In this document: positions 57,051 through 61,868 of the stretch, one piece after another
How positions within the stretch are numbered: position 1 is the stretch's first letter
Layout of the letters: the number at the start of each line of letters is the position of its first letter
Assembly: GCA_964016885.1 (NCBI GenBank)
Contig: OZ024757.1
Coordinates: 4,030,001-4,094,000 of the forward strand
DNA length: 64,000 nucleotides
Direction of reading: 5' to 3'
DNA from: Eledone cirrhosa
Lineage: Eukaryota
Notes under the pieces: generated by a model
Seen by the model: only the letters and a program-made list of their open reading frames with translations
What the model was told of the DNA's origin: nothing
Database searches by the model: none
Position numbers and translations under genes: made by a program

Positions 57051-57117
57051 TATTTTATCTGATGAGGACGTACTGTTGAAGATAGCTCAGTACCTCTGAA
57101 ATAAGTATAATAAAATA
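57051..57117 (+). ncRNA. Type I hammerhead ribozyme (TATTTTAT family)
   Basis: TATTTTAT-CTGATGA-GGACGTACTG..CAGTACCTCT-GAAA-T-AAGT-ATA-ATAAAATA; perfect 8-bp stem I, AUA site. Confidence 0.8.
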
Positions 57118-57255
57118 CACTTGATCACACGAATGTCTATTTTTGTTAATATTTTGAATTAATATTAATAACTCCGGAAAACCATTCTTGTAGAGTGCTT
57201 CTAATCTATTGTAAAACTCATTCTTTGATTTATTCATTGAACCTTGTTTAACCTT

Positions 57256-57306
<51 letters not shown>

Positions 57307-57307
57307 G

Positions 57308-57964
57308 AAAAACATGGGAAGAAAGAGGAATACTGCGTGGTTGCACATGGGTTACATATTATAAAATTAGTCCCTCATCAGTGATTTGCCAACCGTCATT
57401 GGTATTTCATCGCATTAAAAATCAGATACCTCAGGTTGGTGCGAGCAATAACTAAAATAAGCTATTGGGACAAGTGAATCGCGTAAAGCAAGGGGGACAA
57501 GTAAACAACAGAAGGAAAAGTAAACCGAAGGTAGGAAAACAGCAAGCAACATGATGGTTATCCGGTCAGCATAAGCTAGGTGAATTTCATGAGCGGTCAG
57601 AAAACAGACCATCCGCCGTGAATGAGGTGTGAGAAAGAAGGAACCCCACTACTAACGAACGGGAGGAAGTGAGAATGGGAGAAACAGAGAGTGAGTGAGT
57701 GGAAGTGCGAGGAAGAGGTCAGTCGAGAGAAAGTGTAACTGACAGAGGGGGCGAAAGAAGGTGAGAGAAACAGAGAGAACGGGGGAGCAGTAAGAGAGAA
57801 AGAGAGAAACAGATAATCGCAGGCGAGGTAAATATGTATGAAAAACATGGGAAGAAAGAGGAATACTGCGTGGTTGCACATAGGTTACATATTATAAAAT
57901 TAGTCCCTCATCAGTGATTTGCCAACCGTCATTGGTATTTCATCGCATTAAAAATCAGATACCT
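57308..57964. repeat. About 125-bp direct repeats bracketing a ~530-bp unit, flanked by (TA)n
   Basis: AAAAACATGGGAAGAAAG...AATCAGATACCT at about 57308-57431 and 57841-57964. Confidence 0.88.
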
Positions 57965-58374
57965 ATATATATTAAGTGACAGCGGGGTGGGGGTATATGT
58001 GGTTCTGTAATGGTTTGGGTGTTAATTAAAAGGTTTGCCGTCTCTGAGGGCTGGTGGTGATATTTCAGTAGCAACTTAGTGAGGCTTAATGTGTATTGGA
58101 ACTCCGTCGATTGCGACGAAGAGTGTTCCAGTTGATACAATCAGTGGAACAGTCGGCAAATTATCTGGCACTTGTCCGAGCATCCCAGATGCACCTGTTA
58201 AAAAGACCTTCTTCGGCCGTTGTTGATCCTGTTCCGCTTGTTAACCACCATCATCATCATCAGCATCTGTCCATGTTTGCCATTCTGGCATTACAGACTC
58301 GTACGCCCCCCCCCCCCCCCCAGTCTCGAATGACCATGTGATTTACACCTAGAAAGTATCCCACCGAGGTACAA

Positions 58375-58635
58375 GTCCTGGCAAGGTTTGTTTGTGAAAG
58401 ACCAGCAGTCACCCATACCAGTCTCCCCTCTCCACGCCACCTATGTTGTCCAAGGGAAAGGCAATGACCGATACAGTTTGGCACCAGTGACGTCACTACT
58501 CATTTCTACAGCTGAGTAAACTGGAGCAACGTGAAATAAAGTGTCTTGCTCAAGCACACAACGCATCACCCGGACCGACAATCGAATTCACAACCTCTGA
58601 AATGCAAGCCCAACACTCCAACCACTAAGCCATGT
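58375..58635 (-). mobile_element. tRNA-derived SINE (cephalopod-type)
   Basis: ACTGGAGCAACGTGAAATAAAGTGTCTTGCTCAAG.ACACAACGC followed by an antisense B-box-like ATCGAATTCACAACC and CCACTAAGCC. Confidence 0.65.
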
Positions 58636-59650
58636 TCTTTCACATGCACGTGTACCCTTAATGTAACATAATATAGAATCAGAGTGACGCTGTGTATATG
58701 CCAGGGCTGGCTATTTGAATTGCGGGTAACCTCATATTGACTGCAGCAACGTAAAGTGTTTACAGAACCGGATTAAATGATTTTGAGGTCTTAAAAACTC
58801 CAAAGATTCATGGTGTGTCAAACCCACACCTCACACACACACACTAACCCAAAACCTGGAGAAATGGGACAAAATAGGGAGATTTTACATAATGGAAGCT
58901 ATACCCATTTTCACAAGAGGACATGTCTCACCCACTCCAAAGTGGGTAGGAGATCTCCGCCGTCCGACGGGGAGAGTTGACAGGTCTGCTATGAGAAACT
59001 CAATCTTAGACCTCCAGGACGCATGGTAAATTTTCGAGACTTATTCTAGGAAAAATTAAAAAATAAGATGGCGACTTCGACGGCGGGAAATACGTCAATT
59101 GCTCTGAGCTATTCTTTAAATTTGTTACAATCGAAAGATTCGATGGAGATAAGCAGAAATTATAGAAAATAATTTGTTGTTCTCTTAAAATATGGCGGAA
59201 ATATTGATATGAGCTGTTAAAGAATTTGAAGAGAAATTAGAATTCGGCTGCAGATGTTTTAAATAATTCATCTAATTCATAAAATATAAAAATTAAAAAA
59301 AGGAACAATGTCGTTATCAAATTCCCCGATATTATAAATATTTAGACACGAGAGTCTAACGAGATTATACGAGACTTCCATCATTATTTTCACACAACTC
59401 AACTTTTGCAATTTCATAATTATATTCTTCTATAATTTTAATCTTTTCCTAGTTTCAGTCAGTAGACAGTGGCCATGCTGGAGCACAGCCTAGTTTTAAT
59501 CAATCATATCAACACCAGTTCTCTTTTCCTGGTTTCAGTCATTAGACAGTGACCATGCTGGAGCATGTTATTTCTGTTTACCTTTTATGTGCGCACGTGT
59601 GTTTGTGTGTGAGTGTGTGTGAGTGTGTGTGTATGTCTCTGTGAGAGTGT

Positions 59651-59682
<32 letters not shown>

Positions 59683-59954
59683 CTCTGTATGAATGTCTGC
59701 GCGTGTGTGTGTGTGTGAGTGTGTGTGTGTGTGTCTGTGTGTGTGTGTGTGAGTGTATGTGTGTGTGTGTGTGTGTGAGTGTGAGTGTTTGTGTGTCTCT
59801 GTGTGTGTGTGTATATGTGTGTGTGAATGTGTGTCTGTGTGTGTGCGTATGTGCGTGCGTGTGTGTGTGTGGCAGTATCCGCAAGGTGTGGAAAGGAAAG
59901 AGTAAGCCAGTGCTCAATCTGGAAGAGAGAAGAAATATTATATTATTTATTTAC

Positions 59955-60075
59955 GATCTGAGTTCAAATCCCGCCGAGGTCGACTTTGCCTTTCATCCTT
60001 ACGGGGTCGATAAAATAAAGTACCAGTAATGCACTGGGTAATTTCTGGCCTTGTGCCTAGAGTAGAAACAATTAT
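59955..60075 (+). mobile_element. tRNA-derived SINE fragment (Octopus-type)
   Basis: GAGTTCAAATCCCGCC (B-box)-GAGGTCGACTTTGCCTTTCATCCTT..GGGGTCGATAAAATAAAGTACCAGT. Confidence 0.7.
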
Positions 60076-60440
60076 TTATTTATGTTCAGACATGGAACAA
60101 AGGTGCTACACTAAATTTAGTTTTATCTGTACAAGGCCCTCAAGAAGGGTCACGAGTTTGATTCTGATGGTATGGCCAAATTTGGACCTTGAAACCTTGG
60201 CTAAATAAATAAATAAATGAATAAATGAATAAATTCATTTATTTATTTATTCATTTATTTATTTATTGGTTTATTTCTTGCCTTTTGCTCTTCTTCGCAT
60301 CCCCCTTCTATATTGTTCTACGTCCTTTTCTTATTTAAGTGTATCATATTATTTGTGGTATAAAAACGTTGAGATTTGGTGAAATAAATCACTGCCACTA
60401 TTGGAATTGAATAATCACCACCATGTCACATATCAAATCT

Positions 60441-60507
60441 TATATTTTGTCTGATGAAAACGTACTTAAACACCATTGTACCTTTGAAATATGTATAATA
60501 AAATATA
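60441..60507 (+). ncRNA. Type I hammerhead ribozyme (TATTTTAT family)
   Basis: TATATTTTGT-CTGATGA-AAACGTAC..GTACCTTT-GAAA-T-ATGT-ATA-ATAAAATATA; 10-bp stem I. Confidence 0.8.
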
Positions 60508-60571
60508 TGTTTTGTTTATGGGAATATTTTTCATTTATTAATATCTTGAATAATAATATATATATATATAC

Positions 60572-61195
60572 GGAAAAAATGAAACGAAATTTCATTTCCC
60601 ACTCTTAGTACGGCTGTTACTTAAATATAAGTATGTACACGTACATACATATATGTATACAGACGTACAGTAGTATGTATATATATATATACATACATGC
60701 ACACATATATATATATATATGTACGTATGGATTCACCGAACATTTATTATAATGCTCGGTGTGTTTGTAAACAAACATCCCGTAGTGTCCAGCAACCATC
60801 GTTGCTCGTTTGTTCAACACTGACAAAGGAACGCTGTACTAGTTTCAAGCTTATTAGCTATCGTCAGCAACGTATACCTTCCTACCAGATTGTGAACGTA
60901 TATACTTACCTTATGCATATTAACGGCTGAGAAGCCCAATTTGCATATCGAGTGGGTTAATCGGCCGGGTTCACCGAAAACGATAAAAGGAAAAAATGAA
61001 ACGAAATTTCATTTCCCACTCTTAGTACGGCTGTTACTTAAATATAAGTATGTACACGTACATACATATATGTATATAGACGTACAGTAATATGTATATA
61101 TATATACATACATGCACACATATATATATATGTACGTATGGATTCACCGAACATTTATTATAATGCTCGGTGTGTTTGTAAACAAACATCCCGTA
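60572..61195 (-). mobile_element. 1.5-mer tandem of a ~417-bp HHR-bearing non-coding unit (retrozyme / non-autonomous PLE)
   Basis: Direct repeats 60572-60784 and 60989-61195; homologous to 8116-8910. Confidence 0.75.
60831..60873 (-). ncRNA. Minimal type I hammerhead ribozyme
   Basis: Minus strand: ACGTTG-CTGACGA-TAGCTAATAAGCTT-GAAA-CTA-GTA-CAGCGT. Confidence 0.82.
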
Positions 61196-61346
61196 TATAT
61201 ATACATATATTTATATATATGTAGGAGGTGAGTTTTATTGTAGTACAATAAAGCAATGCAGATATCGGATAAGAAGCACTCTACAGTTTGTAGGACTGGA
61301 GTATACATAATATATAAGAACAAAAGATGGTTAAAGGAGTTCCATA

Positions 61347-61417
61347 TATTTTATTATGCGCATTTCAAAAACAAATATCATCATGCAATAATATTTGTGT
61401 TTTCATCAGATAAAACA
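61347..61417 (-). ncRNA. Type I hammerhead ribozyme (inverted copy)
   Basis: Reverse complement of 61798-61868. Confidence 0.85.
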
Positions 61418-61797
61418 GGAGGACATGATATGAAGGCTAAAAAACACTTGTGGATAGTTCAGTTTTAAATCAACATATGAGAAGTAGTTTTAGATTGATG
61501 TGTGATATTGGGAAAAATATTTTATTTAGAGGGGGGGATGAAAAAAAGAGGAGGAGATGAGAGTGAAGGTGGAGAGGGAGGAGTATAGTGAGGAAGGATG
61601 AGATAGGAGGAGAGATGGGTGATAGAGAGAGAGAGAGATAGTTTTTATAACTCTCATCTCCTCTTTTTTTCACCCCCCCCCCCCTCTAAATAAAATATTT
61701 TTCCCAATATCACACATCAATCTAAAACTACTTCTCATATGTTGATTTAAAACTGAACTATCCACAAGTGTTTTTTAACCTTCATATCATGTCCTCC

Positions 61798-61868
61798 TGT
61801 TTTATCTGATGAAAACACAAATATTATTGCATGATGATATTTGTTTTTGAAATGCGCATAATAAAATA
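61798..61868 (+). ncRNA. Type I hammerhead ribozyme
   Basis: TGTTTTAT-CTGATGA-AAACACAAATATTATT-GCAT-GATGATATTTGTTTTT-GAAA-T-GCGC-ATA-ATAAAATA; palindromic ATGCGCAT, AUA site after 61860. Confidence 0.85.

Follow-up and report, generated by a model that had tools for sequence, protein, structure and literature searches.

Introduction

Type I hammerhead ribozymes have been described in Penelope-like elements (PLEs), and their genomic occurrence (PMC4209133) is as single motifs from truncated PLEs and as opposite-strand pairs 100-700 bp apart, with a small palindromic helix III for which a dimer model was proposed. Described here are a hammerhead family and the repeat that carries it in 64,000 nucleotides of the Eledone cirrhosa genome (GenBank assembly GCA_964016885.1, contig OZ024757.1, positions 4,030,001 to 4,094,000 of the forward strand), a stretch referred to below, at its full length, as the window. 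With a probability of about 0.78, the copies are dispersed, non-coding, 5'-truncated 3' ends, that is, pseudo-long terminal repeat (pLTR) remnants, left by a Penelope-like retroelement that targets (TA)n or by a non-autonomous element derived from it; cleavage by the ribozyme after AUA is predicted to require either a dimer or the assistance of a protein.

Three further systems are relevant. In PAc, a tail lies between two internal start sites of reverse transcription, the ribozyme cuts only with the element protein, and the template is mainly uncut RNA, as stated in the main account of that element (PMC11167929). Among retrozymes, cleavage was recorded in only one of the nine dimers tested, in the portion of the preprint that deals with dimers (bioRxiv 2026.07.22.740005). 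The literature on Naiad-type PLEs describes, in its passages on insertion structure, an inverted 5'-truncated copy, a one-sided tail and a (TA)n bias, with (TA)n insertion noted for the clades Neptune, Hydra and Naiad (PMC8557442).

Results

Hammerhead folds

A generic hammerhead descriptor, which was not fitted to these letters, gave five matches in 44001-64000, four of them belonging to the present family and one to another, and no match in any of 300 block-wise (local) dinucleotide shuffles. The coordinates, letters and hammerhead identity put forward in an earlier sequence-only reading of the region were confirmed. The sites, the first four of which are complete type I folds in the descriptor scan, are as follows.

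57051..57117, plus strand: type I hammerhead; helix I of 8 bp; helix II of 3 bp, C.C and 6 bp; helix III of 2 bp with loop AAGU; predicted cut after 57109.
60441..60507, plus strand: type I hammerhead; helix I of 10 bp; helix II of 3 bp, C.C and 4 bp; loop 3 AUGU; predicted cut after 60497.
61798..61868, plus strand: type I hammerhead; helix I of 8 bp; helix II of 3 bp, C.U and 12 bp; loop 3 GCGC, a perfect palindrome; predicted cut after 61860.
61347..61417, minus strand: hammerhead identical to that at 61798; predicted cut after 61355.
47277..47339, plus strand: degenerate hammerhead that retains the core and helices II and III but has a broken helix I beside the core.
6704..6761, plus strand: more decayed relative and a weak match; core box broken; C.C mismatch and GTAC stem shared; palindromic loop 3; different helix I.

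The GAAA box, the A15.1-U16.1 pair and the AUA triplet are present in all five named sites (all but 6704), and the type I core is as expected in each, with a CUGANGA box and a cut-site H that is not G. The four intact folds contain CUGAUGA and the U15.2-A16.2 pair, and the core box at 47277 reads CUGAAGA. Because the core boxes, A15.1-U16.1, U15.2-A16.2 and AUA are all in place, the predicted cut positions coincide with the three AUA sites proposed earlier, after 57109, 60497 and 61860. The three helices with an open-ended helix I are intact in four of the five sites; at 47277, pairing is lost at three of the first seven positions of helix I, including the second pair counted from the core. 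Helix II always displays three pairs, then a C.C or C.U mismatch, and then 4-12 more pairs. The 10.1-11.1 pair is A-U in four sites and G.U in one, and there is no insert between positions 9 and 10.1.

A covariance model of the kind suggested in the sequence-only reading was built from 57051, 60443 and 47277 alone. It recovered both 61798 and 61417 at 44.2 bits (E ~3e-7, the E-values being rough), and gave six matches in total, the weakest of which was 6704-6761 at 19.3 bits and E 0.16. On the basis of descriptor, core and fold, the motifs are genuine type I hammerheads for which cleavage is predicted. A C/D box small nucleolar RNA (snoRNA) was considered and rejected, the matches being far below threshold and a 3' CUGA being found in 57051 alone.

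Covariation and sequence variants

The pairs at the base of helix II differ between copies (GGA/TCT, AAA/TTT and AAG/CTT), just as the sequence-only reading had it. In a model-made alignment of five distinct rows, two-sided changes are found at 7 of the 17 pairs, six of these in helix II, a level reached by 2 of 500 shuffles, with slid registers giving 0-3; the alignment was fitted to the model and leans to structure, it includes the weak 6704 match, the sample is small, and the count is not a probability. The tips of the stem had been regarded as unrelated. Three of the four independent copies, however, have a helix II extension that begins GTA(C/T) and ends GTAC, with only 61798/61417 deviating, and the tips are therefore related.

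Four public sequencing runs were aligned to 61660-61900 (241 bp) at 80% likeness. Matching sequences amounted to 3423 contigs (run X1) and 3376 reads (run X19) from one organism, 18 contigs from a second and 5 contigs from a third, and the majority of the run sequences are less than 99% alike over the 241 bp. At least 40 variants were listed among the run copies, with 13 more beyond these. Sixteen of the listed 40 lie within the ribozyme: ten at paired positions, six at N7 or in loops, and none at a conserved core base. The pair is retained in nine of the ten listed stem variants as compared to 26 of 46 possible transitions (hypergeometric P 0.017), in a test that treats linked changes as independent when several occur in the same contigs. 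One contig of run X6 shows a 5-base deletion at 61804. The summed run depth, which is not copy number, increases about sixfold from ~0.35 million at 61705-61731 to ~2.1 million at 61867-61875; greater depth near the 3' side of the ribozyme than 150 nt upstream is expected for 5' truncation.

That structure is kept over sequence had been taken earlier as strong evidence of functional RNA. The structure is indeed maintained, but the covariation points to selection on the RNA of active source elements and not to a function of the copies in the window.

Helix III and the dimer model

Helix III consists of two pairs around four bases. In the monomer folds helices I and II are well populated, whereas the pairing probability of helix III is 0.0 in all four intact monomers. 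The 8-mer extending from A15.1 to U16.1 is self-complementary with a differing middle, perfectly so in 61798/61417, 47277 and 6704 and with G.U in 60441; the letters of loop 3 vary, yet self-complementarity is kept in five of six sites. The energy of the 8-mer as a hairpin is +4.7 kcal/mol, and as a two-molecule duplex it is -10.5 (61798/61417), -6.5 (6704), -3.2 (47277), -2.2 (60441) and +2.0 kcal/mol (57051). In a rough loop-sum of the double hammerhead against two free folds, the balance is -11.5 for 61798/61417 and -2.6 for 60441, which favours the double form (in the latter case slightly), and +3.4 for 47277 and +13.8 for 57051, where it is not favoured. Helix III is thus predicted to be unstable alone and suited to dimer formation, a design already known, from the parts of the two sources that treat it, for metazoan type I and PLE hammerheads (PMC4209133, PMC6765202). 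It may be speculated that 60441 and 61798 form a heterodimer within one transcript, with seven of the eight helix III pairs possible by eye.

The repeat, its ends and the head-to-head insertion

The hammerheads are embedded in longer homologous DNA, delineated as follows.

56690..57050, plus strand: upstream part of the repeat; a pyrimidine-rich tract, then ~100 nt homologous to the region upstream of 60441; 5' boundary uncertain.
57118..57258, plus strand: 3' part of the repeat; tail-homologous 14-mer at 57189-57202; (TA)n end 150 nt past the cut site.
60275..60556, plus strand: whole repeat copy around 60441; 5' boundary approximate; (TA)n end 59 nt past the cut site.
61650..61908, plus strand: short, 5'-truncated arm of a head-to-head insertion, without tail; (TA)n 52 nt past the cut site.
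61221..61649, minus strand: long arm of the head-to-head insertion, which meets the short arm with its 5' end at 61649/61650.
61221..61306, minus strand: tail of ~86 nt, in the minus arm only and present in reads from other loci; (TA)n end 135 nt past the cut site.
47203..47389, plus strand: repeat copy of ~185 bp around 47277, with (TA)n on both sides.

Different flanking contexts had been claimed for the motifs, and this is not supported. The 57051 and 60441 copies align over 139 bp at 71%. Their upstream flanks match at a level reached by 4 of 1000 shuffles, and the downstream flanks of 57051 and 61417 at a level reached by 7 of 1000, with an exact 14-mer in addition. The remaining 10 of the 12 flank comparisons are weaker (12 to 853 of 1000 shuffles), and the copies are therefore regarded as diverged subfamilies. 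On the basis of these alignments, the flanks are taken as homologous parts of one non-coding repeat.

All five named copies run out into (TA)n, at 52, 58, 59, 135 and 150 nt past the cut site, and thus two end classes are seen, 52/58/59 and 135/150 nt; (TA)n is common in the window, so that such ends alone are weak as evidence. Every copy spans the predicted cut site.

The 61417 and 61798 arms contain identical ribozymes and differ by 3 substitutions in 255 aligned bases. They are the two arms of one 5'-truncated insertion, joined 5' end to 5' end, and the named sites therefore represent four independent sequences rather than five. In a read-through RNA the two arms would pair with each other. 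Two clear differences between them, at 61778 and 61869, are both common variants among other copies, and hence the arms could stem from two different RNAs. Loose ends in the runs include a second head-to-head (palindromic) junction near 61736 in X1 and X4, and the tail at other loci in X4 and X19.

With regard to coding capacity, a DUF7392 match upstream of 47277 lies below the cut-off. Pattern scans of two metagenome-contig and two viral-contig sets yielded 0 loci, and thus no relative with a neighbouring frame was found in these sets.

Other repeats in the window

The window is animal repeat DNA, in which (TA)n and (GT)n runs are numerous and which also contains a satellite of 25 kb and a reverse transcriptase fragment of LINE (long interspersed nuclear element) type. 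The following features were observed in addition to the family described above.

1-3285: tandem array of a 664-bp unit, ~99% identical, in which every unit carries a type I hammerhead from a family other than the present one; retrozyme-like.
433, 1097, 1761, 2425 and 2920, plus strand: hammerheads of the 664-bp unit, with loop 3 palindrome CCATGG and a long interrupted helix II.
14081-14351, minus strand: diverged piece of the 664-bp-unit array.
8645, plus strand, and 60873-60831, minus strand: third hammerhead family, with short helix II and loop 3 palindrome CTAG.
60566-61195: partial tandem (219-bp direct repeats) containing the third family, inserted just 3' of the 60441 copy.
8119-8872: head-to-head structure, also with the third family.
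57294-57965: 138-bp direct repeats (96%) flanking a purine-rich middle; CTGATGA on the minus strand of each, with no complete hammerhead fold; possibly another PLE-like remnant.
62472-64000, minus strand, and 11609-12661: LINE-type fragments, 86% alike, with a reverse transcriptase domain at 63024-63998 (minus strand) and C-terminal C2H2 fingers.
18356-43483: 25-kb satellite with a 24-bp unit, ~1050 copies, strongly strand-skewed.
5561-5949, 14351-14504 and 47946-48026: more long palindromes centred on or near (TA)n.
5718-5799: sub-threshold mir-9 match inside the palindrome at 5561-5949, probably a by-product.
59950-60038, 14744-14930 and 15897-16278: dispersed short repeat, present several times and resembling a short interspersed nuclear element (SINE).
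5154-5353: run of 200 N, an assembly gap.

The LINE-type fragment at 62472-64000 lies on the strand opposite to 61798 and is apparently unrelated to it. The best matches of its reverse transcriptase domain are 50-56% identical, and the named ones, from shrimp, octopus, snails and a fish, are at 43-47%. We take the repeat at 59950-60038 to resemble an octopus SINE, although nothing here relies upon it.

Discussion

Comparison with known systems

The closest counterparts are the pLTR hammerhead variants of PLEs from Drosophila, rotifer, shrimp and mosquito (Cervera and De la Pena 2014, PMC4209133). As far as the sequences presented there extend, these are likewise type I motifs with a long helix II, a short self-complementary helix III and AU-rich flanks. 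They are mostly single motifs, with opposite-strand pairs 100-700 bp apart (~400 here), and carry many compensatory changes. The Marsupenaeus japonicus PLE in Fig. S3 of that paper shares with the Eledone family the missing 9/10.1 insert, the A10.1-U11.1 pair and A17. The PLE variants differ in that their helix I is 2-5 bp, as opposed to 8-10 bp here, and in Eledone there is a constant C.C or C.U at the fourth helix II position, no G10.1-C11.1 and no PLE frame in view. Among the rows of Fig. S3 that were compared, none contains the Eledone hammerhead sequence.

Poseidon PAc of Anolis carolinensis (Frangieh et al. 2024, PMC11167929) is alike, in the features its account lists, in having a hammerhead upstream of two 3' end points, an optional tail, AT-rich targets and copies that span the cut site. 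It is unlike in being autonomous, with no helix III listed, a frame that starts in helix II and a tail of 30-40 nt, whereas the Eledone repeat has a tail of ~86 nt and yielded no frame. The non-LTR retrozymes (Cervera and De la Pena 2020, PMC7229834; Li et al. 2026, 10.64898/2026.07.22.740005) are, in the portions of these reports that define them, similarly non-coding and PLE-related, with a type I hammerhead and weak helix III, but they are tandem units each having a hammerhead, whereas in the window the copies of the Eledone family are either scattered or inverted. Naiad PLEs (Craig et al. 2021, PMC8557442) resemble it in their (TA)n targets, inverted 5'-truncated copies and tails, and differ in having been reported without canonical hammerheads in the sections devoted to them.

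A Naiad origin was rejected for two octopus consensus ends, the 3' ends of Naiad_Obim and Naiad_Ovul being unlike the repeat when compared by eye. The tail motif gave 0 matches in the supplement of PMC8557442, where line breaks could hide a motif match. Full-text literature with a coverage that excludes most subscription papers and repeat libraries provided no description of this hammerhead family, and two papers on cephalopod repeats, in the portions available, mention Penelope and not ribozymes. The family was filed neither as an Rfam family, a strict minimal hammerhead ribozyme (min-HHR), an autonomous PLE nor a retrozyme.

A probable Penelope-like origin and its alternatives

The palindromic helix III and the retroelement anatomy, both missed in the sequence-only reading, together identify the kind of element and predict little or no cleavage for a single motif. 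The Penelope-type features encountered are the inverted 5'-truncated copy abutting the 5' end, the one-sided tail with two 3' end points, and insertion into (TA)n. From this anatomy we infer a link to an autonomous PLE. In the scheme envisaged, the parent PLE or PLE-derived RNA would carry a hammerhead near its 3' end. Two such hammerheads would anneal through their self-complementary 8-mers, giving a shared helix III of 8 bp, or an element protein would aid folding, which would allow the cut after AUA. The PLE reverse transcriptase/GIY-YIG protein would nick (TA)n and copy uncut RNA from one of two internal starts, ~55 or ~140 nt past the cut site, and copying would stop early and sometimes turn back, leaving truncated and inverted pieces. 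Given that every copy spans the cut site, the template would have been uncut or re-ligated RNA. The copies in the window have no same-sequence partner on their own strand and are probably inert.

Several observations weigh against this interpretation. Neither the 135 Rfam matches obtained for the window nor two local scans include a hammerhead model, the matches otherwise being only microsatellite-driven microRNA and snoRNA noise, and the free-fold z-scores are weak (-0.7 to -1.8). A Pfam scan of 150 of the 185 open stretches in the window revealed no GIY-YIG domain, and its only reverse transcriptase belongs to the separate LINE-type fragment; likewise, 18 stop-read-through frames of the upstream and intervening DNA, compared with Pfam, gave neither reverse transcriptase nor endonuclease. 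A missing PLE frame beside the copies is what is expected of short truncated copies. The motifs depart from the min-HHR consensus in that there is no extra base at 9/10.1 and A-U or G.U replaces G10.1-C11.1, and the tail exceeds the length described. At 57051 the palindrome contains an A.G mismatch, and both the monomer (+10.6 kcal/mol) and the dimer (+13.8 kcal/mol) are unfavourable. To these must be added the linkage among the stem variants, and specifically the variant 61848 T>C, which breaks its pair unless linked to 61813 A>G.

It is conceivable, though unlikely, that the copies are single monomers from a non-LTR retrozyme, whose short non-coding unit would be tandem elsewhere in the genome, processed by its hammerheads to circular RNA and moved by PLE proteins. 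This idea overlaps with a pLTR origin because retrozymes appear to derive from pLTRs, and it would account for the absence of a coding trace at the copies and for their spanning the cut site. Another hammerhead family in the window is in fact tandem, with the 664-bp unit, and monomers make up a share of 0 to 1 of the retrozyme families in those tabulated by the preprint (bioRxiv 2026.07.22.740005). Within the window, however, there is no tandem copy of the present family, the sequence past the hammerhead in the 429-bp arm does not repeat that before it, and the variable 5' ends, the head-to-head arm and the one-sided tail fit target-primed PLE insertion. Less probable is the "functional RNA" of the sequence-only reading in its strict sense, namely host-recruited, individually active monomeric ribozymes cutting a host transcript. 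The core and helices are kept in three diverged same-strand copies within 5 kb, and all can extend helix I past an internal loop in the manner of canonical type I hammerheads. Against these stand the absence of helix III in the monomers, the weak 10.1-11.1 pair, the decay of 47277 and 6704, the abundance of repeat debris in the window, where several unrelated hammerhead families are found, and the mutual pairing of the 61417/61798 arms that a read-through RNA would undergo. Slightly less credible still is pairing at the DNA level, in which small palindromes would belong to the terminus of a SINE or non-autonomous DNA element, with an incidental hammerhead core. Such a view is in keeping with the AT-rich stems, the weak folding z-scores and the lack of an Rfam match, but not with core bases that are all correctly spaced and a descriptor that found nothing in 300 shuffles; moreover, the motif is strand-specific and its variants pass through G.U wobble, which suits RNA.

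A long shot is that the Eledone motifs constitute a distinct hammerhead subtype, with an 8-10 bp helix I having a distal internal loop, a constant C.Y mismatch in helix II and no G10.1-C11.1, whose helix II drifts rapidly through adenosine-to-inosine (A-to-I) editing of the long hairpin fixed by reverse transcription. The listed variants at A-U stem pairs, five A>G and one U>C, are in its favour. Selection through G.U intermediates predicts the same pattern, however, the direction of change is unpolarised, and in run X19 A>G is no more frequent than T>C across all 241 bp (8 of each). If true, editing would provide an RNA-level source for the extreme variability of PLE hammerheads left unexplained in the discussion of it in PMC4209133.

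Significance

The significance of the finding is modest. The kind of element is already known; what is added is a high-copy hammerhead family common to at least three organisms in the runs. The window does not settle the role of the ribozyme in transposition. The thousands of variant copies of the family provide a clean natural series for the role of the PLE hammerhead, in which the two end classes mirror the two reverse-transcription starts found in vitro for PAc, and the covarying loop 3 palindrome argues for dimer pairing.

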